Source: Octopus vulgaris (Eukaryota). From it: 64,000 nucleotides of DNA. The DNA lies in NCBI GenBank assembly GCA_951406725.2, contig OX597815.1, positions 102,610,001 through 102,674,000 of the forward strand. The letters are read 5' to 3'. Shown piece after piece: positions 4,638 to 51,645 of this stretch. Under the pieces are notes generated by a model. That model ran no database searches. It saw only the letters and a list, made by a program, of their open reading frames with translations, and was not told the origin of the DNA. The position numbers and the translations under genes were made by a program. The stretch's first letter is position 1. Every line of letters starts with the position of its first letter.

Positions 4638-5195
4638 GAGAATCAAGAGAATGTGTGTGTGTGAGAGAAAGAGAGGGAGAGAAAAGGTGATTGCATAAAA
4701 GAGCCAAAGAAAGAATGAGATAAAGTGAAGTGAAAGAGTGACAGAGAGGTGTATAAGGGAGGCAAGAAGAATTGAAATCACCAAACTAAAGGGGAGACAG
4801 TGGAGAGATATAAATATGTAAAATGGAAATGGAAATGAAAGTTGCTACTTCTAATATATTTGTGACGACAAGTATGAACTAGATCTTCAGTAGACTGTTT
4901 TCCTATGACACACACAAGTTTGTTTCCGACCTAGAGAAGAAATCTCTAAGTGGTCACCCACCCTGGAATAAATAGTTGAAAATTATTTCTCGAATCACAC
5001 TTCAATGTCTTTATATATATATATATTAATATTTATCGCCGTACTAATATGGCAATCTTATAAATATAAGACTAAAGCTGTCGATGATTAGCTCCAAGAG
5101 GCCACCGCCTCAAGCTAGCTATTTGACACACAATCTGCGTCCATTATAGACTTTCGAACAGGGGAGGTCAGCCGCTTCATCCTGCTAGTCAGACA

Positions 5196-5238
5196 GCTGC
5201 AGACGCGTTTCAGGGTAGTTGCCATTTATCAATGCAGC
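5196..5238 (-). ncRNA. Minimal type I hammerhead ribozyme (U3-A8 core variant), minus-strand copy
   Basis: Exact reverse complement of 5633-5675. Confidence 0.75.
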
Positions 5239-5632
5239 GTAGTCAGACCCAGCAGGTGTCGCTACTGACTGTCCCTGTTCGAAGAATCTATTTACCTAGT
5301 TTCGGTGGAATACATCCACTTGTTTTCAATAATAGAAATATTAAAATTACTAAGTCTCTCTAAAAGAGATTACGGCAGCGTTACTGGAAATTAATAGGCG
5401 GTGGCCTCTTGGAGCTAATCATCGACAGCTTTAGTCTTATAGCTATAAGATTGCCATATTAGTATGGCGATAGCTATTAATTTCCAGTAACGCTGCCGTA
5501 ATCTCTTTTAGAGAGACTTAGTAATTTTAATATTTCTATTATTGAAAACAAGTGGATGTATTCCACCGAAACTAGGTAAATAGATTCTTCGAACAGGGAC
5601 AGTCAGTAGCGACACCTGCTGGGTCTGACTAC

Positions 5633-5675
5633 GCTGCATTGATAAATGGCAACTACCCTGAAACGCGTCTGCAGC
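5633..5675 (+). ncRNA. Minimal type I hammerhead ribozyme (U3-A8 core variant)
   Basis: Stem I GCUGCA(5633-5638)/UGCAGC(5670-5675); core UUGAUAA; stem II AUGG-CAACUA-CCCU with one mismatch; GAA; palindromic stem III ACGCGU; GUC cleavage triplet, cut after 5669. Stem I extends via CCUGCUGG(5615-5622)/CUAGCAGG(5683-5690). Confidence 0.78.
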
Positions 5676-6103
5676 TGTCTGACTAGCAGGATGAAGCGGC
5701 TGACCTCCCCTGTTCGAAAGTCTATAATGGACGCAGATTGTGTGTCAAATAGCTAGCTTGAGGCGGTGGCCTCTTGGAGCTAATCATCGACAGCTTTAGT
5801 CTTATATTTATTGCCATATTAGTATGGCGATAACTATTAATTTCCAGTAACGCTGCCGTAATCTCTTTTAGAGAGACTTAGTAATTTTAATATTTCTATT
5901 ATATATATATATATATATTATATAATGGGCTTAGTAAAATAAATTACTTTGCCACATACTGAACTTAGTAGAAATAGCAGCCAAAAAAATTTTTCTTAGC
6001 ATTTCTACTACTTAAAGAAAATTTCTCTCAGATAATGTTTATTCTAGACATCTCACGAAGGTTTGGGGGTAAATACAGAAAAATATCACAAGTACATAGA
6101 TCG

Positions 6104-6166
6104 TTTGAGTACGTCAACGTTTCAAGATTAGCCAAATAAAATCAGCATTTCTTTCGTCAGCTCAAA
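6104..6166 (-). ncRNA. Type I hammerhead ribozyme, minus-strand copy
   Basis: Reverse complement of 6661-6723. Confidence 0.85.
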
Positions 6167-6660
6167 ATTTCTTAATTTGGATTTGGAAACACTAAAAGAA
6201 GGAACTTTACCTATCAGCGAACTTGTCGCTTCAGATGAACCACTCCAACTAAACAGTGTCAACAAATTCAAAATGCGCAGGCGTAAAATTCTGCACTCCC
6301 CATTCCACCCACGTGGTCTATCTAGCAAACATTATATTTTAACCGCGAGAACCAAGGCAGTATGACCGAGAGAAATGAATTATAATATCAACAATTGAGG
6401 GTAAAATTAATTAATTAATCAATTTCACCAAGTGTTGATATTATAATTCATTTCTCTCGGTCATACTGCCTCGGTTCTCGCGGTTAAAATATAATGTTTG
6501 CTAGATAGACCACGTGGGTGGAATGGGGAGTGCAGAATTTTACGCCTGCGCATTTTGAATTTGTTGACACTGTTTAGTTGGAGTGGTTCATCTGAAGCGA
6601 CAAGTTCGCTGATAGGTAAAGTTCCTTCTTTTTAGTGTTTCCAAATCCAAATTAAGAAAT

Positions 6661-6723
6661 TTTGAGCTGACGAAAGAAATGCTGATTTTATTTGGCTAAT
6701 CTTGAAACGTTGACGTACTCAAA
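6661..6723 (+). ncRNA. Type I hammerhead ribozyme with canonical core
   Basis: Stem I UUUGAG(6661-6666)/CUCAAA(6718-6723); core CUGACGA(6667-6673); stem II AAGA/UCUU plus GCUGA/UUGGC; GAA(6704-6706); stem III ACG-UUGA-CGU; GUA triplet, cut after 6717. Confidence 0.88.
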
Positions 6724-7090
6724 CGATCTATGTACTTGTGATATTTTTCTGTATTTACCCCCAAACCTTCGTGAGATGTCTAGAGTAAACATTATCTGAG
6801 AGAAATTTTCTTTAAGTAGTAGAAATGCTAAGAAAAATTTTTTTTGGCTGCTATTTCTACTAAGTTCAGTATGTGGCAAAGTAATTTATTTTACTAAGCC
6901 CTAATTATATAATGTAATATTTTGAATTCGCCTTAAATGGTCCTTTTACATACTGAACACTTGGTGAAATTGATTAATTAATTAATTTTACCCTCAATTG
7001 TTGATATATATATATATATATATAATTCAATTATATCATCATACAGCTGCTGCTTCAGTATAAAGCACATTATCAAGAGCCCTCTCTCAG

Positions 7091-7372
7091 TTGTAACTGT
7101 TAAGACCCTGGATCTCGCCCACAAGTCCAGGCTTGCATGATAAATTCAGCAATGCTACAAGATAACCTAACCGAAAGAATTACACCGGGTTAAAGGAAGG
7201 CGACTTCAAAAGATGTTATGCAAACCACCTATCTTCTGTCCGGCACAATGACAAAGTTAAAGTCACTAAGTTGACTAGCCATGTATTGGGTTTGGAGACC
7301 AATTCCATACCACATCCTATCCAGTGGAAAATCTTAGAAAAATCTATGCCATATATTAATGGATCAGAAAAT
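7091..7372 (+). pseudogene. Penelope-like element GIY-YIG endonuclease remnant
   Basis: Manual translation across a stop and frameshift: CNC*DPGSRP...C then NYTGLKEGDFKRCYANHLSSVRH...TKLTSHVLGL...IQWKILEKSMPYING. This matches the CxC-linker / YIG..FK.RY.NH..SF / W.I...PY pattern of PLE endonucleases. Non-coding 3' sequence may continue to ~8320. Confidence 0.8.
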
Positions 7373-19289: not shown

Positions 19290-19675
19290 GGGACATCGAT
19301 CCCACCCCAGTGTTTAACTGGCCCTTATTTCATCGATTCCGAAAAAATGAAAGGAAAGGTCGAGCTTGGTGGAACTTAGAACTTAAAGACAGACGAAAAA
19401 CCATAAGGATTTTGTCCTGCGTGCTAACTATTTTGCTAGCTCACCGCCTACATAATAATTATGATAACAATCCTTTCTGCTGTAGATATAAGGCCTGAAA
19501 TTTCTGGAGTGGTGCTAAGTCGATTACATTAAACCCGGCACATGGCTGGTACTTACATTATCAACTTCGAAAAGTTGAAAGGCGATGTCGACCATGGCGG
19601 AATTTGAACATAGAACGGACAAAATGGCTCTAAACATTTTGCCCGGTATGCTTAAGCTTTTGCCAGCTCGCTACC
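19290..19675 (-). mobile_element. Two tandem decayed SINE copies (Meta/MESC-type core)
   Basis: gaaaggaaaggtcgagcttggtggaacttagaact and gttgaaaggcgatgtcgaccatggcggaatttgaac parallel gatgaaaggtaaagtcaacctcgacagaatttgaactc at 25063-25100. Confidence 0.7.
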
Positions 19676-19708
19676 ACAATGATAATAATGATGATGATGA
19701 TGATAATG

Positions 19709-19764
<56 letters not shown>

Positions 19765-19785
19765 TATAATAATAATAATAATAAT

Positions 19786-19841
<56 letters not shown>
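19676..19841. repeat. (TAA)n/(TGA)n array; further (TAA)n blocks at 20571-20657, 22501-22670, 24801-24960 and 25250-25357, with (TAC)n at 25175-25250
   Basis: Direct reading; the blocks separate the LINE copies. Confidence 0.97.
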
Positions 19842-20566
19842 GCCTCCCCACCAGAAATTACCAAAAACATGTAATGAAAAGAAATATTACAAGTAACTGC
19901 AGAATATGTGGAGATGGACAAGAAACAATAAATCATATTATCTCTAGCTGCCCAGTCCTGGCTAAGAAGGAATATATTCACAGACATGACAGAGTTGGAA
20001 CCTACATACATTGGAAGCTATGCCAACATTATGGAATAACAACAGAAAAAAGATGGTATAGGCACACACCAGAAAAGGTTACAGAAAACGAGAAAGCAAC
20101 CATACTCTGGGATATGCCGATACACACAGATAGAGAAATTAAGGCCAACAGACCAGATATAGTTGTCAGAGATCATGAAGAAAAAAATGCTTTCTAATTG
20201 ATGTATCAATACCGGCAGATGACAACGTGTCTCTAAAAGAAATGGAGAAACTCTCAAAATACAAAGACCTGGAAATAGAGGTAACTAGAATGTGGAATCT
20301 GAAAACAGAAACAATTCCTATCATAGTAGGTGCATTAGGCATGATAAAAAAATATTCAGACAAATACATAACAAAAACACCAGGACTTACAAACACATAT
20401 AACATACAGAAAATTGCACTACTAGGCACTGCCCACATCCTACGCAGAACACTTTCCATACAATAACCATCAGAGCATCACAACAAATCACAGCACATAC
20501 CCAAGGCACACAGAGCTGCGCTCGGTAGTGAATGAAAGCACGCTATAAAAAATAAAAATAAAACTA

Positions 20567-20570
<4 letters not shown>
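19842..20570 (+). mobile_element. R4/Dong-clade non-LTR retrotransposon A, 3' fragment (CCHC knuckle plus restriction-like endonuclease)
   Basis: CRICGDGQETINHIISSC, RHDRV and RPDIVV motifs, frameshift near 20190, then KLSKYKDL...IIVGALG...ALLGTAHILRRTL with stop at 20466. The 3' UTR ends ...actactga|ataataa. (TAA)n on both sides. Confidence 0.93.
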
Positions 20571-20647
<77 letters not shown>

Positions 20648-20657
20648 AATAATAATA

Positions 20658-22500
20658 GCTCCAGGTTATCGATAAGACTATTCTGGCTGACTGCAATGGT
20701 CCCACACTCGTGGATTATTGAATGTCTTATGCTGCTTAATGTCTCCCACAATATCCTGAAGTTAATACAAAGCTCAATGGCAACGTGGCGAACTGAACTC
20801 ACTGCTTGGGAAGATAAACTGGGAGAGGTAAATATCAAAAGAGGAATCTTTCAAAGGGTCTCTCTTTTTAGTTGTCTGCATACTGCCCCTAACCAACGTT
20901 TTAAGAAAGATGCATGTGGGGTACATGCTAGGCAGGGTGAAAGTAAACAGACTGCGGTTTGTGTATGATCTAAAACTACTTACTAAAATTGAGAGTTTGA
21001 CGGTAAATGTGCAGATGATTAGCAAAGATAATGTTATAGAATTTAGGATCGAGAAATGTGGTGCAATGATTCTCAAAAGGGGAAAACAGGAAAAGCCATG
21101 GAATCAAGCTGTAAAGTGGCGAAACTATAAAGGAAGTCGGAGAGGAAGGATATAAGTACCTGGGTATTATTAGAAGAGATAAGATGAATGAACACAAGAT
21201 GAAAGAAATGTAGAGGAAAAAGTATTTGAGGAGAACTCGGCTTGTCCTCTAATCGAAGCTAAATGACCGCTATAAGATTAGAACAATTAACACGTGGGCG
21301 AATTCTTTGATGAGATATGGGTCAGGAATAGCATCTTGGAAGAAGAATGAATTACAAGAGATAGACCGGAGAACACGTAAATTAATGACAATGAACAAGG
21401 AACTACACCCCAAGAGTGATGTGTCAAGATTGTATGTAAAGAGGAAAGAAGGAGGACATGATTTGGTGTGTTGTGAAGTTTGTTTAAGGGAAGAGGAGAA
21501 TAGCCTGGCTTGGTTTGTGAAGGGGAGTAAAGTAGAAATGATTGAAGCAGTGAAAATGCAGGGAACCTTAAAAGTGAACGAAGCTGTAGATCCAACATGA
21601 TTTAAGAAAGACCAGAGAGAGAGCAGATGAAGAAAATTTGGCAGGACAAGAAAATGCACTGCCAGTTCTTGAAGAATAAAGATGAGATTGATTGGAATGG
21701 AACCTGGCAATGAATGCAGAAGGTAGACTTAAAAGGGCCTACTGAGGCATTGGTGAGCAGCGCTCAAGAACAGGCTCTCAGAACAAACTACTCTAAATAT
21801 CTCATTGGTAAAAGCACTGACTCGCCACAGTGTAGGATATGCTCTGAGAAGGGAGAAAGTATAAGCCATATTGTTAATCTGTGCTGCAAGCTCGCACAAC
21901 GCGAATACAAAAGGAAACACAACAATGTGGCTAGATATGTCCACTGGCTGTTGTGCAGTAAAGCAAACCTTGTGAGAGCCGAACAATGTTACGAACACAA
22001 GCCAGAGGGAGTAATGGAAAACGAACATTACAACATACTGTGGGGTTTTTACATGGAGTGCGACCAAGTCATAGAGGCGAGACGGCCAGATATCATGATC
22101 ATCCATAAAGACGAAAAAGAAGCAAAGATAATAGATGTTGCAATACTAAGCGATTCAAAGGTGAAATATAAGGAAACAGAAAAGAGTGAGAAATACCAGC
22201 CACTGCGGGATGAGATAGGAAAGTTATGGGACATGAGGAAAGTAATCGTGATACCGGTGGTAAAAGGAGTATTAAGAGCAGTTTCCAAGAGCTTTGAAAA
22301 ATATATTAAGAATATTGGAACTACTGGCAGGCTCGAAGTGCTCCAGAAGACAGCATTGTTGGGTACAGCTCGCATTCTAAAGAGAGTATTGTCTCTGAGT
22401 CACAGGAGAAGACACAACTTAAAACCTTTACTGATTTTTTATTGCCTACTTTCAAGTAAAGAACAACCGCAAATTAAGAACAATACGAGAGTCTTTCAGA
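20658..22500 (+). mobile_element. R4/Dong-clade LINE B, 5'-truncated and degraded (RT part plus RLE)
   Basis: MVPHSWI, KRGIFQ, YKYLGI, RLYVKRKEGG, CRICSEKGESISHIVNLC, RRPDIMI...IIDVAI, EKYQPL, ALLGTARILKRVL, with multiple stops. Ends ...ctttcaga|ataataa. Confidence 0.92.
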
Positions 22501-22524
22501 ATAATAATAATAATGATAATAATG

Positions 22525-24834
<2,310 letters not shown>

Positions 24835-24853
24835 TAATAATAATAATAATAAC

Positions 24854-24897
<44 letters not shown>

Positions 24898-24960
24898 TAA
24901 TAATAATAATAATAATAATAATGATGATGATAATAATAATAACAGCAACAACAATAATAA

Positions 24961-25174
24961 TCCTTGCTACTACAGGCACAAGGCCTGAGATTTGTGGGGA
25001 GGGGGATAGTCGATTACGTCAACCTCAGTACTCAACTGGTACTCAATTTATCGACTCCGGAAGGATGAAAGGTAAAGTCAACCTCGACAGAATTTGAACT
25101 CAGAACGTAGCGACGGGAGAAATACCACTAAGCATTCCGTTCAACGAGCTAACGATTTCGTCAGTTCGCCACCT

Positions 25175-25175
<1 letters not shown>
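24961..25175 (-). mobile_element. tRNA-type SINE with Meta/MESC-type core
   Basis: Minus strand: aaggtggcgaactgacgaaatcgttag...gagttcaaattc (B-box-like)...gactttacctttcatccttccggagtcgataaattgagtaccag...aggccttgtgcc. Confidence 0.82.
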
Positions 25176-25251
<76 letters not shown>

Positions 25252-25268
25252 TTAATAATAATAATACT

Positions 25269-25349
<81 letters not shown>

Positions 25350-25357
25350 AATAATAA

Positions 25358-26840
25358 AGTAAATGTTTGAATATATTCAGTATAGCAGACAACATAAGAG
25401 AATTAATTAGTTTTAGCATGAAGAAATGGCAAGTAGATCTATACTCAGGTGACACACTCTTAGGAAAAGTTCATACCAAAAGAGGAATTTTTCAGGGGAC
25501 TCGTTGTCCCCTTTAATAATTTTCCTTTGTTTGATTACTCTCAGTTTAGTAATAAGGAAGGTAAACGCAGGGTATCAGTTCAGAAATAGTAATGGAAAAA
25601 TTAACCATCTGCTCTACATGGATGTTCTGAAGTTTTTTTGTAAGAAGGAAAAAGAGATAAATTCCTTAATGCAGACTGTAAGACACTTCCGCAAAGATAT
25701 AGGCATGGAATTTTGTATAGATAATTGTGCAATATTAGTGATGAGAAGGGGACAGGTAGTCGACAGCGAAGGCATCCAATTACCAGATGGCCAGACATTA
25801 GAATCATTGAAAGGAGGAGAGAGTTATAAGTATTCAGGAGTATTAGAATCTGACAGAGTACTAATTACAGAAACGGAAACGAAAATTGAGAAGGAGTACA
25901 TCAGAATGGTGAAGAAGCTTATGAAGTCAAAGCTAAACGGTCCGAATCTAGTGAAGGCTGTAAATACGTGGACAGTATCATTACTTAGATACTCAGCTGC
26001 TTTTGTAAACTGGAAAAAACTGAATTATCAAAGCTAGACAGAAGAACTAGGAAGGGATTCAATATGAATGGAGGGCTCCCCACAAGAGCAGGAGTAACAA
26101 GATTACACCTACCTAGAAAGGAAAGTGGAAGAAGGTTAATATCCGTAGAAGACTGCGTGGAGTTAGTTAGAGTAGATATAGACTACTATGTAGGTAATAG
26201 TGAAGGCAGTTTATTAAAAGCTGCTAGAGTCATAGCAAGACATAGGGAAACTAAAACACCAAACGAACTTAAAAACCAGAATAAAGAACAGAAATTATCT
26301 GACTGGCAGGAGAAGGCTTTGCATAGTAGATTCCCAAAGAAAGTTTCAGCAAATAGTAATAGTGAGACATGGTTATGAATGCAGAAGGGAAAGCTGAAGA
26401 GGGAAACAGAAAGTTTGTTAGTAGGTGCACAAGATCAAGTATAAAGAACTAATTGGATAAAAGCCAAGTAGATTCTAAATGTAGATTATGCAAATCAGAA
26501 GAGGAAAACATTACTCATATAGTAAGTAAATGTAGCATGTTGGCACAGAAAGAATACAAGACATGGTAATCCAGGGAGAGCAATCCGCTGTGAGCTATGC
26601 TGAAAGCTAGGATTTGAACATACTGATGAATGGTATTAATATGAACCTAGTTAAATACTAGAAAGTAAGAAATACAAGGTATTTTGGGCTTTAAAATTCA
26701 GACTGACAAACTAATAGAAGCTAGAAGGCCTGATTTGGTAGTAGTAAATAAAGAGAATAGAAAGTGCTATATAATTGACTTTACGGTCCCAAATGATGAA
26801 AGCACTAATATGAGATATATAGAAAAAATGTCAAAAGATC
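25358..26840 (+). mobile_element. R4/Dong-clade LINE D, degraded and missing both ends
   Basis: [58 protein letters not shown]...IIDFTVP, EKMSK. Begins directly after (TAA)n. Confidence 0.88.
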
Positions 26841-46790: not shown

Positions 46791-46889
46791 AACATACATA
46801 CATACATACATACATACATACATACATACATACATACATACATACATACATACATACGTACATGCATACATACATATGTATCTACCTAC

Positions 46890-46971
<82 letters not shown>

Positions 46972-46983
46972 GTCTACCTATCT

Positions 46984-49444
46984 GTGGATATCACAGCCAT
47001 CTGTGAGACCAGACTCCACAACCCGCGGGCTTTCCAGCACATGTTCTGCAGACAATTCGACACTTATATTTCACCGTGTAGTATCGCGGTGCTTTTTCGG
47101 AAGAGTCTGGGCCTCAAAGTAAGAGCAATATTCATAGACTCGGAGGGTAGGCTGGTCGCCTTGGATGTCGATGGCAGTAATGCCTGCGCTTTTCCACTGA
47201 TAGTAGTTTATGTACCATCCTTAATAGATCCGCCGGATTTCTTTCGACGTCTAGAGCTTTTCCTGGGAACGTCTCGACCTTTACTTTTAGTGGGGGATTG
47301 GAACGCTACCTTCGACACGCATCTAGACTACGTGGGTAGAGAAAGGAATTGGAGGGGATGTAAATGTCTCAAAGACCTGCTCAGACGTTACCAACTGTCT
47401 GATAGGTACCGACTGGACCACCCGAATGTGCCAATGTGGACATGGAGCAACCGCATTGAGTCGTCCAGATCGTATTTAGGTAGAGAATTCTGTAGGACAG
47501 TGGGTAGGGGTAGTGTAGGTTGTCCACAATTTCATATAGTTAGCTACACAGGTCACAAATTTGTGACTTGTACGCTTGACTTAGATAAGAATCATTGGCA
47601 GGGTCCCGGCTACTGGAAACTGGACGCGCCGTTCACGGCACGCCAGGCTTATAGAGACCGGATTAGCACATTAGTTAAGAGAGCATTGATGAGCACCATC
47701 GTCAATAATAGATGGTGGTATGCCATAAATAAAGCAATTAAAGCAGAATCGGTTAGGTATAGTAAGGCTCTAGCGATAGATCGAAATAGAATAGAGGGAG
47801 GCCTAGTTAAGAAATTAGAAGAGGCACATAAAGTAGCATCGCGTCCAACGTACTGGCGGCGAGGTTGGCCTTCGACCAATACTTCAACGCCAAACACGTC
47901 AGAGCTAGGATCCTTGCTCTGCGAAGCGGTAACGGGAGCGAAAATTCACTCGGAAAAGTCAGTGGGCTTGCGGCTCGGCACCTGGTGAGTCAGGCCTCTG
48001 CCGTCCAACAGTGTCTCCATCGTGGCACACTGGATCGACGGACCAATTAAACTGCTCGGTGTCTGATTCAGAACGTACCTCCAAATGGAGAAGAACTAGG
48101 ACGAGATAACGAGTAGGATGGCCCCTCTCACCCGGCAATGGGCCGGGAGAAAGCTATCCCTAAAAGGTCGGGTGGAAGTGGCGACACATACATCGCATCT
48201 GCCATCTATTACCGTCTGGCCGTCGTGCATTGTCCAGACCCTACCATCACCAAAATGGAATGCATGCTCTTCCGCTTTTTGACGAAGGGAAGCGTTCCGA
48301 TAGTTAGGCGATCTATTTGCTGTCAACACCCATTAAATGGAGGGCTGAACATGCCATGGTTGATGATGCGCAGACATGCGCTGAGGCTACGACATCTCTG
48401 GCGCTTCATATACGACGGTGAACAGGTGTGCTCGCCGTTTATGAGGCGCGCGTTACCGCAGCTCGTCTCTGGCCGAACTGCAGTCACAGATAAGAGACCG
48501 AGAGTAGGCGAATAACACCGCGAGTGCCGCCTTACTCTCAAGCGACTCTGCCGCCCGGGAACAAACTTGTGCAACTTCAATTCCACGAAGGCGTTCTATA
48601 GAGGATTAGTAGAGGGGAGATGCGACGAAGTTCTTGGGGAGAATCTTGCGTCGGCGGGGAAGACCAGACTCGCCTCTTCAGGACAACTTTCGGGCCGGAA
48701 CCTATGGACAATCATCAGAGATCACTGGCCTAGTAGTGCTATCGGGAAGTATTGCCCGATCAGGATAAGCTCTACAGGCACTGTTAGAGATACGCAGGAT
48801 CGACTTGCCCGAGATACGGTAAAAGCGACGAAACAGTTCTGCACGCACTCGTGTAATGTTCAAACCTGTGGTCTTATGTGGAACGGCTGCTGTCACGTGT
48901 TGGACGAATTCGTGAATATTACCCCGCCACCTTCCTTTAACCGGGAAGGCAAAACAGTTTTCATTGTACTGGTGGCTATGGTGAAAGAATGTGTGTGCTG
49001 GGCTAGTGAGAAAGGTTTAGAGACAAACACTTTTCTCTCTGGCCAATCGCTGATCAACTTTTTTAAGTACCACTTGAAAAGGAAGGTGAGAATAGAGAGG
49101 CACGATTTGTCTCATGAAAGTTTCAATAAATGGTTGGTGAATGTAGCGAAGGTGGTACGCATGAATGACGAAACCACTTCGAACATGATCATGCAAATCC
49201 AAAGGAGAGAGAGAGTGACAGGGAGAGAGAGAGAGGGCTTTCTTTCCCTGCCTGAGGTTACCGTGGTCTCTTTCGAAGGTTTTTCTTTCCACATTTGTTT
49301 TACATTTTTACTCCCCATTATTTTGCTTTCGATCCCTTTTGATCGGGATTTTTTCTTTTATTTTCTTCTGCCTTTCTTTCGAAAAGATAAGTTCTACATT
49401 GTACTGTCCCATCTGTGTTCGGCTTTGTGTGGCTAATAAAGAAA
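46984..49444 (+). mobile_element. Tx1/L1-clade LINE, 5'-truncated with most of the RT deleted, inserted in (TATC)n
   Basis: APE endonuclease motifs AICETRL, EGRLVAL, IVVYVP, LLVGDWNA, WTW and GPGYWKL. Near 47915 the sequence jumps to late-RT EAVTGAKIHSEKS, GPIKLLGV, LSLKGRVEV and NGGLNMP, with a C-terminal Zn-finger relic at ~48805-48860. 3' end aataaagaaa|tctatc. (TATC)n at 46878-46983 and 49445-49660. Confidence 0.9.
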
Positions 49445-49648: not shown

Positions 49649-50212
49649 TCTATCTGTATCCCCTTCCACTCAGTGCTGCTGTAACTATTCACACGATAGG
49701 GTGGTCATTTAACAACTCTCCCCCAAAATGTATAAGCCTTTTTCCATTACTTTGTATGTTTGCTAAAACTTTGAGATGTTTAGAAATTCCTATATCATTG
49801 CTATGGTACTTCTAGCTTGTCAGCGCTCCTCTCAAATGAACTTACATGTATAAAGGTAGGGAATTCTAGTAGCTGTCCCTTATAGATTTGGCTGAGGAGA
49901 TTCAGGCGCTTTTGGCGCTAAATTCGAAATCCTGATATCAAATTAACCAACATCCCCTGGTGGAGGTAAGACGCTATTCTTGTTCACTAAGATTTTTTTT
50001 CCTAACACGCCTGTATTAATTCAGTGATTCTTCCGTGGCTTCTATTTTTAGCAAAGCAGGTGCTTATTTAGTACCCTAGTTTATATAAATATATTTTTAT
50101 ATATTACGTACATAATTATTAATTTGCCTATACGGCTTTACGCTCTTGGCCACTAATTTTATGATTTTTAGAAATAATATCGTTCTTCTCTCTCGTTCTC
50201 TCTCTCTCTCTG

Positions 50213-50278: not shown

Positions 50279-50945
50279 TATTCTGTCATCCTGTAAATAA
50301 TGCGGTTTTTTCAATTGCATGAACTAAAATTCGGAGTGGGACAAGATAAACTACCTGCATCGACTTACTATAAAAGCAAATAGTAATTTTACCTTGAACT
50401 TATTCTTCTTAGTGCAAGTTTTGAAGCGTGCAGTTTGATTTTAATAGTTATTCTTTTCAGAGCTATAGTGGAATTGTCAAAGGAGTGTATTCTGTATATT
50501 TTGCTTCAAGGTAACAACGCAACGGAAAGTTTGAGGAATATTAATGCAGTGTATGGGGATCGGACAATAAGCGTAAGCGAATATCAACGGTGATTCCAGA
50601 AATTCCTAGCCGGAAATTACACCCTAGAAGACAAGCACCGTCCTGGAAAATCTGTAGAGCTCGATGAGGACGTCCTGAAAACTCTGGTGGAACAAAATCC
50701 AATTGTAACAGTTGTGGAACTAGCAGAGAAGCTTGGATTTGGTCGTTCAACCATTCATGGACACCTGCGGGTCATCGGAAAAGTCAGCAAATTGGATCAA
50801 TAGGTTCCACACAAACTTTCCGAGAGTGGATGTGTGCTCTTCTCTGCTGTCATGTCACACGAATGAACCTTTTTTTCGACCGAACAGTCACTAGTGACAA
50901 GAAATGGGTTCTCTATAAAAATGCCAAGCGCCGAAGACCGTGGGT
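50279..50945 (+). mobile_element. Mariner transposon 5' fragment
   Basis: TIR-like ta|ttctgtcatcctgtaaataatgcgg. Translation NATESLRNINAVYG...FQKF...LEDKHRPG...ELAEKLG...HLRVIGKVSKLDQ*VPHKL...VTSDKKWVLY covers the HTH region, WVPHEL-like linker and first catalytic D. Confidence 0.88.
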
Positions 50946-50959
50946 AGGGAAAGGAGAAA

Positions 50960-51645
50960 CGGCGACTTCACCATAACGGCAGTGGCGATAGCATTACCGT
51001 CGCCAACACCATCTCCAACGACACCAGCACCAGTAGTCCCAGCCCCAACAACAACAGATACAGTACCGACAACACACTCCCACGGAGATACATTGGCTGT
51101 TCCGAGAACTATTTCAAGCAACGTCTCCCAACCGCAGGTCCTCCTTCAGAATTCTGGAAAGGAGATACGTAACATCAGTGGCCAGCCACGTCTGGCAACT
51201 AAGAGATGATGGCGTTCCATACTCGATCTCATGAAAAATCCTCGGGAACCAAGGCCCCTACATCAACGGGATGATGCGTTGCAAGCTATGCATAGCTGAA
51301 TGTGCGAGAATCCTAAAAGGACTCACACGAACCAGGGAACATCTTAACTCCCAAACGGAGATTTTCAGGCCATGTTTACATTTCAGAAGGTTCCTGTTGT
51401 TTTTTGAACCCACAAGATGGCGGCACAGCCGGAAATCAATAGCGTATATCAAAGGGAGATAATCCCCAATTATCACCTTTGAGTAGTGAGGCATTTCCTC
51501 CTCCATATTTTTAAGAGGGCCATAAAGTTAAACCCTTTATGGAAATCTAAGGTGATCCCATAAACCGGCCTTCCTCACTTTTAATATATGTTGCTCTACC
51601 TCTTAGAAGGTGCTTCTTTCGGATTTATGTTCTTTACAAACGATA
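50960..51645 (+). mobile_element. Penelope-like element 3' fragment (GIY-YIG C-terminus plus 3' non-coding) abutting the mariner
   Basis: RRYIGCSENYFKQRL...SSFR...TSVASHVWQLR...*KIL...PYINGMMRCKLCIAECARIL...HLNSQTEIFRPCLHFRRF. Ends in (TA)n. Confidence 0.82.

Follow-up and report, generated by a model that had tools for sequence, protein, structure and literature searches.

Non-LTR retrozymes of animals are small, non-coding repeats, each carrying a single type I hammerhead ribozyme, which are low in GC, strongly self-paired as circles, multi-copy, and found alongside Penelope-like elements (PLEs) (PMC7229834; bioRxiv 10.64898/2026.07.22.740005). They are known from head-to-tail arrays and as circular RNA, the circles described in invertebrates measuring 170-400 nt (PMC7229834) and the vertebrate elements ranging from 51 to 972 bp (bioRxiv 10.64898/2026.07.22.740005). 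The same preprint counts a retrozyme as active if two or more hammerhead-bearing units follow one another head-to-tail, and reports that eight of nine Xenopus retrozymes tested in vitro failed to cleave. It bases the PLE origin of animal retrozymes on this co-occurrence and on similarity to PLE pseudo-LTRs, and describes the mechanism of mobilisation as open. In the giant squid genome, 235 hammerhead matches have been counted rather than described (PMC6962438).

Head-to-head inverted copies, tails and a bias towards TA sequence form the standard footprint of PLEs, the formation of whose tandem and inverted structures is called unresolved (PMC8557442, PMC3846280). Insertion into (TA)n is a trait of the Hydra, Naiad and Neptune groups and is found in nearly all Hydra-clade PLEs, which are marked by a CxCX5C linker and CxxC/CxH motifs; in one Hydra family an inverted copy, truncated at its 5' end, is recorded along with hammerheads on either strand, and the tails described measure 30-40 nt (PMC8557442). 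The inverted pseudo-LTR structures of Penelope are likewise head-to-head, with a junction overlap, a palindrome and a one-sided tail (PMC3846280, PMC4209133), and pairs of opposite-strand hammerheads 100-700 bp apart have been put down to the truncation of PLEs (PMC4209133). The sole PLE examined in vitro, that of the anole, encodes a protein that cuts both strands of AT-rich DNA and extends both, beginning at two internal sites, the distance between which becomes the tail, and using unprocessed RNA as its main substrate (PMC11167929).

Here a locus from Octopus vulgaris is described, in which a non-coding unit of 566 nt that carries a type I hammerhead is arranged head-to-head within (TA)n, beside an unrelated element of the same build.

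Structure of two adjacent head-to-head insertions

The window, a stretch of 64,000 nt from contig OX597815.1 (positions 102,610,001 to 102,674,000), is low in GC and rich in microsatellites and decayed retroelements, as is typical of a large animal genome. Within the element at 5917-7007 (Table 1), the 8-mer tgttgata occurs at 6433 and again at 6999, which sets the unit length at 566 nt; the right arm is therefore one permuted unit running from tgttgata to tgttgata, as stated in a preliminary description of this DNA. The left arm is an inverted, permuted copy of 520 nt that reads from 6436 down to 5917, spans the junction between unit end and unit start, and lacks unit positions 482-523. In either arm the last letter of the unit (566) runs straight on into its first (1), which closes the map at 566 nt. 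Two substitutions, two one-base homopolymer indels and a 2-nt deletion near the left end distinguish the arms.

The same description placed the strand switch at a TGTT microhomology, where the arms do overlap by 4 nt, and regarded the spacer as an inverted copy of the unit's own end, which is borne out for 6381-6436, at 52 of 52 letters over 6385-6436 against 6956-7007. Its near-perfect palindrome is real in kind and smaller than the 1.1 kb given to it, pairing extending over 5917-6913 (~1.0 kb) and the remaining 94 nt forming an unpaired tail. The left arm ends 3' at an AT-rich site internal to the unit, and both arms merge at their 3' ends into (TA)n by way of AT-rich unit letters. An inverted, 5'-truncated, head-to-head copy is thereby present at the locus, as is a partial tandem of the permuted unit equivalent to a pseudo-LTR overlap, of 9 nt in this element and 142 nt in its neighbour.

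With a GC content of 34%, the 566-nt unit is non-coding and without an ORF of known kind. Neither an ORF for reverse transcriptase (RT) plus a C-terminal GIY-YIG endonuclease nor any coding remnant was found in it, and none of four window frames submitted to Pfam was matched. As a circle it folds at z -6.2, and none of 60 shuffles was equally stable. In all these respects it resembles the animal retrozymes; it is larger than their invertebrate circles and within their vertebrate range. It differs from them in lying head-to-head with a tail in (TA)n, an arrangement for which the main text of PMC7229834 does not use the word 'inverted', and in being known here from DNA alone rather than as circular RNA. 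Compared with Hydra-clade PLEs, it has no RT-endonuclease ORF and a longer tail, and while the inverted segment of a Penelope insertion adjoins a long stretch of coding sequence, the unit here is so small that the palindrome makes up the entire insert.

The neighbouring element, composed of a 365-nt unit that as a circle folds at z -7.0 (again equalled by none of 60 shuffles), has a junction overlap of 2 nt, a one-sided tail of 56 nt and a left arm that falls entirely inside the range of its right arm. The two families had been described as unrelated and as adjoining in one TA tract, and both statements hold: the units have no alignable sequence in common (best local scores 17 and 19), and a single TA run lies between the elements. 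The suggested repeated targeting of the same site is supported as far as TA sequence goes; the window contains 48 (TA)6+ tracts, both families are multi-copy, and insertion into (TA)n would leave (TA)n available to the next insertion, so that no preference for a particular site need be invoked. The inner arms of the neighbour are identical across 338 nt, and its spacer and outer overlap copies differ at several places. When three overlap copies were compared (5396-5481, 5761-5846 and 5025-5110), these differences were confined to one 35-nt segment near the start sites, a pattern that favours a multimeric template of mixed composition, or a subsequent conversion of one arm by the other, over a plain monomer circle having been copied repeatedly.

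Table 1. Features of the two insertions and of the related remnants, in window coordinates
Feature	Position	Strand	Remark
(TA)n left of the neighbouring element	5012-5025		
Neighbouring element	5025-5902		unrelated family, 365-nt unit, head-to-head
Left arm of neighbour	5397-5025	-	
Right arm of neighbour	5396-5902	+	
Mirror copy of neighbour hammerhead	core at 5232	-	
Hammerhead of neighbour	5633-5675	+	U3-A8 core, 6-nt palindromic stem III; regular-expression match
(TA)n separating the two elements	5900-5917		
Left arm of 566-nt-unit element	5917-6436	-	unit positions 524-566, then 1 to ~481; 3' end in (TA)n
Hammerhead in left arm	6104-6166	-	identical to that in right arm; C3 at 6160, predicted cleavage site 6110
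Spacer	6398-6428	-	31 nt, unpaired, within inverted copy of unit end; contains AT-rich imperfect hairpin
Strand-switch microhomology	6433-6436		TGTT, 4 nt, head-to-head
Right arm of 566-nt-unit element	6433-7007	+	full unit (6433-6998) and its first 9 nt repeated; 3' end in (TA)n
Type I hammerhead in right arm	6661-6723	+	C3 at 6667, predicted cleavage after 6717; 10-nt self-complementary stem III region
One-sided unpaired tail	6914-7007	+	94 nt, separating one 3' terminus from the other (unit 482 to 9)
(TA)n right of 566-nt-unit element	7005-7024		
Hydra-clade PLE remnant	7024-7372	+	decayed, 5'-truncated, frameshifted; linker and GIY-YIG-type endonuclease region
Hydra-clade PLE remnant	51112-51399	+	decayed; profile match
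Hydra-clade PLE remnant	about 56925-56382	-	decayed; profile match, RT sequence by eye on to ~57300
Hydra-clade PLE remnant	61737-61597	-	decayed; profile match

Hammerhead motifs and Penelope-like remnants

The conserved core, the three helices and the open stem I of a type I hammerhead are all present in the 566-nt unit, as judged by a descriptor of our own that matched none of 5000 shuffled units and 0.025 times per shuffled window (40 shuffles). Its three matches in the 64-kb window are those with C3 at 6667 (+), at the mirror position 6160 (-) and, more weakly, at 49892. Stem I has 6 bp, stem II 4 bp with an extension and stem III 3 bp with a tetraloop; the stem III region may alternatively form a 10-bp intermolecular helix with a second copy (-10.8 kcal/mol), a dimer design reported for animal type I hammerheads (PMC4209133).

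The preliminary description had credited this motif with a fully canonical core and all three stems. The core letters and the three helices are there, with reservations: stem II is closed by an A-U pair, stem III amounts to just 3 bp on its own, and the active fold, at -9.2 kcal/mol, lies 0.4 kcal/mol above the minimum-energy fold (-9.6). G-C is the usual pair at the closure of a hammerhead's stem II. Rfam was silent on the motif: at gathering thresholds nothing in the whole window was matched, and at E values up to 10 the 33 matches within 4900-7200 included no hammerhead, being mostly microRNA-type hairpin models on the palindrome centres. Overall, the hammerhead appears credible and beyond chance, cleavage at the indicated site being a prediction.

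Compared with it by eye, the Hydra-clade hammerheads of PMC8557442 (File S2) are alike in shape: their palindromic stem III is the same in opening A-C and closing G-T, their cleavage triplets (GTA/GTT/GTC) agree with it, and in the octopus Hydra family stem II is closed by an A-U pair too. The neighbour's hammerhead has a U3-A8 core, a variant reported for PLEs (PMC4209133), and was missed by the strict descriptor since position 5647 in stem II is mispaired in this copy; in nearly all of that family's contig depth a letter able to pair occupies 5647 and the corresponding 5224. The opposite-strand hammerheads lie 507 bp apart in the 566-nt-unit element and 407 bp apart in the neighbour, both within the interval known from Penelope.

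The weak match at 49885-49944 (+) is a degenerate type I hammerhead-like motif with a core like that of some Hydra-clade hammerheads, which is not displayed in its minimum-energy DNA fold; it is possibly an old solo PLE end. A scan of metagenomes with the hammerhead pattern returned 18 loci, none with BLAST similarity to either unit. Ten of these (L001, L004, L005, L007, L010, L012-L014, L016 and L017), all of one metagenome, have a dispersed repeat in common, an unrelated chance match to the pattern.

Directly to the right of the element's TA tract lies a decayed PLE remnant with 203 homologues at E values up to 0.001, and in most of the 15 that were inspected the linker and motifs of the Hydra clade could be recognised. 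A profile built from 16 of 150 listed homologues, applied to five window stretches, recovered this remnant and revealed the three further ones in Table 1; by eye, the remnants of the window resemble a published octopus Hydra family at the C-terminus. A single decayed PLE ORF, split by the site into two collinear flanks, was considered and rejected, the left flank (4660-5030) giving no profile match above 3 bits. When 12 of these 150 homologues were compared with Pfam no meaningful family emerged, a word-based protein search found no family, and an Atlas search yielded GIY-YIG leads only (0.89-0.90). Between the 566-nt unit and the four remnants no DNA similarity was detectable, so the link to the Hydra clade is circumstantial. 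Elsewhere in the window, decayed non-LTR retrotransposon frames occupy 19600-26100 (+), in fragments split by (AAT)n, and 46800-49400 (+), the latter endonuclease-like, the family labels of both being provisional; 50470-50950 (+) reads like what we take to be a decayed mariner-type transposase.

Further copies of both families

Contigs from four of 24 listed sequencing runs were compared with the window, namely the DNA runs X1, X2 and X4 and the run X14, which is RNA only by guess, may hold DNA, and was given no weight as regards expression; one of the compared runs may be the window's own source. In X1, X2 and X4, summed contig depth, which is no copy number, is 13-58 in bins of the left flank and thousands to hundreds of thousands in bins of the elements, and both the 566-nt and the 365-nt families are clearly multi-copy. 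As the reference is itself palindromic, a contig that crosses the head-to-head junction of a different copy leaps from the left arm to the right. Such joints, each at a position of its own and at other unit positions than here, make up 15 of 25 distinct joints among those listed, the ten dropped comprising four same-arm skips, three on the TA side, two inside the Hydra remnant and one on the opposite strand. Ten of the 15 belong to the neighbour's family and five to the 566-nt family; eleven were found in X1, three in X4 and one in X2, at depths of 46-140 in fourteen cases and 529 in one. Each joint represents one contig, with a short side of 21-30 letters where reported, and self-similarity does not explain them (best control identity 9-15 of 25). 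In addition, seven X4 contigs pass from the unit into (TA)n at 6913, the position that matches the 3' end of the left arm. Among the contigs listed, none bridges the centre of the locus or its TA tracts; in a check for the empty site, the flank contigs of X1, X2 and X4 ended inside the TA tract, TA repeats being skipped in the comparison.

Two further observations concern the ends of the 566-nt unit. In all four runs, many contigs share its terminal region and depart at about unit position 26 into related, different sequence (6368; 6844-7007), and its terminal bins are far deeper than its interior bins; several subfamilies probably share these ends. In four of the five other junctions of this family, one arm begins at unit positions 536-555, inside the AT-rich hairpin (6385-6436), as if reverse transcription often stalled in this hairpin near the unit end.

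Candidate origins of the insertion

Two consecutive head-to-tail units with hammerheads are absent from the locus, which has one hammerhead per strand; without two on one strand it is a spent copy that cannot release unit-length RNA, and at best a solo-type derivative. As it also has no autonomous PLE ORF, it is classed here as an insertion of PLE type, non-autonomous and belonging to a family like the retrozymes. We consider it likely that the element is of retrozyme type and was mobilised in trans by a Penelope-like retrotransposon, the Hydra clade being the best candidate. Directly seen are a closed, non-coding, multi-copy unit of 566 nt that bears a type I hammerhead, its head-to-head insertion, (TA)n at either 3' end and a tail on one side; the likeness to Hydra-clade hammerheads and their insertions, the inverted 5' copies and tails described for PLEs, and the Hydra-clade remnants of the window speak for the proposal.

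Under this proposal, a source array would be transcribed into multimeric RNA, which the hammerhead, probably as a dimer, may cut into monomers that may circularise. A PLE endonuclease would then nick both strands of a (TA)n tract, and reverse transcription of a circle or uncut multimer would begin at two internal AT-rich unit sites, near positions 9 and 481. The 3' ends of the two cDNAs would anneal through TGTT/AACA and be filled in, generating the palindrome and leaving the 94 nt between the start sites as the tail. By analogy, the behaviour of the anole PLE would map directly onto two such cDNAs. Neither arm is interrupted at the predicted cleavage site (unit position 285), and the right arm is longer than one unit, hence the template was not a cleaved linear monomer; the circle of the preliminary description, which is putative and would have to be ligated, and an uncut multimer would fit equally well.

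LINE-1 twin priming also joins two primed cDNAs by microhomology to give a 5' inversion, its arms carrying different parts of the RNA. Here, by contrast, the arms overlap by ~480 nt, which calls for a template that is circular or multimeric, for two separate templates, or for snap-back synthesis. Several points count against mobilisation by a PLE. No sequence link from the 566-nt unit to an autonomous PLE was found in the window; the tails of 94 nt and, in the neighbour, 56 nt exceed the length described for PLEs (PMC8557442); the start site of the anole PLE is not homologous to the DNA that is cut (PMC11167929), whereas here the ends merge with the TA tract; cross-mobilisation between PLE types was not seen in Adineta (PMC3846280); and to these may be added the unbridged centre and TA tracts, the dependence of each other junction on one contig, and the failure of most Xenopus retrozymes tested to cleave in vitro.

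Explanations other than a retrozyme mobilised by a PLE fare worse. There is a slim chance that sequencing or assembly produced the palindrome by artefactual fold-back: the arms are ~99% alike, the centre and TA tracts are unbridged among the contigs listed, and one X1 contig that matches the left flank finishes with 4 letters foreign to the window. Such an artefact is made unlikely by the flanking DNA, which is not duplicated, and by the arms, which differ in five places, in length and in unit phase; the inversion goes no further than the TA tracts, its 3' end being one that other copies share, the neighbour is built alike, and the multi-copy nature of the families, together with the 15 other head-to-head junctions at genomic depth in contigs of three runs, argues against a one-off error. 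About equally improbable is that two solo pseudo-LTRs of a long autonomous PLE were left by 5' truncation and that no small unit exists. The spacing of the hammerhead pair here agrees with the opposite-strand pairs ascribed to truncated PLEs (PMC4209133), but the closed 566-nt map, with position 566 joined to position 1 in both arms, leaves no room for an ORF, and the unit contains no coding remnant. Least probable of all is a DNA transposon of the fold-back or MITE type, with long inverted repeats at its termini and TA as its target, in which the hammerhead would be a passenger; a long inverted repeat bordered by TA is as expected of one, and yet the 94-nt tail makes the ends asymmetric, the inner junction differs from copy to copy, the unit shows circular permutation, and an unrelated neighbour with a hammerhead of its own has the same build.

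A closer rival, and a sub-case of the PLE-mobilised retrozyme, is snap-back, in which one cDNA would copy 1.09 units, fold back at its 3' end, prime itself and stop near position 481; it would also require either that recombination between the arms later inverted the spacer or that another short cDNA supplied the tail. Self-priming has been proposed for head-to-head PLE palindromes (PMC3846280), and in the DNA of 6390-6436 the fold of lowest energy has the terminal TGTT paired with AACA; this fold is weak, however, at -3.6 kcal/mol (z -0.46), and 59 of 200 shuffles did as well. Rare alleles are common to both arms of the neighbour (5224/5647, 5149/5722 and 5152/5719), and the letters at 6776 and 6782, rare in the 566-nt family, are identical in the left arm, as snap-back would predict; a single active source copy would likewise give shared alleles. 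The containment of the neighbour's left arm within its right arm also suits self-priming, whereas in the 566-nt-unit element the left arm is without positions 482-523 and the spacer has the wrong orientation for a simple snap-back of the right-arm cDNA. In two of the 15 other junctions the arms start within 2 nt of each other, as would follow from snap-back, but in 13 the offset is 31-251 nt. Given a retrozyme mobilised by a PLE, priming on two strands therefore has somewhat better than an even chance and snap-back somewhat less than one; over all readings, snap-back is rather unlikely.

The literature search, from whose coverage subscription journals mostly fell outside, returned no description of the 566-nt family or of retrozymes in octopus genomes; the family thus looks undescribed, in a structure of a kind already known, which makes it useful rather than surprising to a PLE specialist. 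With families so small and multi-copy that a whole insertion fits in one read, many natural junctions are on hand for testing models of PLE inversion. More tentatively, and at a little under even chances, two or more unrelated, recently active retrozyme families may be non-autonomous partners of Hydra-clade PLEs, replicating through circular RNA and bearing at many loci a complete PLE footprint, made up of two fixed internal start sites, a tail and a head-to-head inversion joined by microhomology. If so, they would provide footprint-level evidence that target-primed reverse transcription by PLEs moves animal retrozymes, and many such junctions would tell two-strand priming from self-priming. 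As these insertions seed kilobase palindromes, they could also yield long double-stranded RNA or fragile sites.
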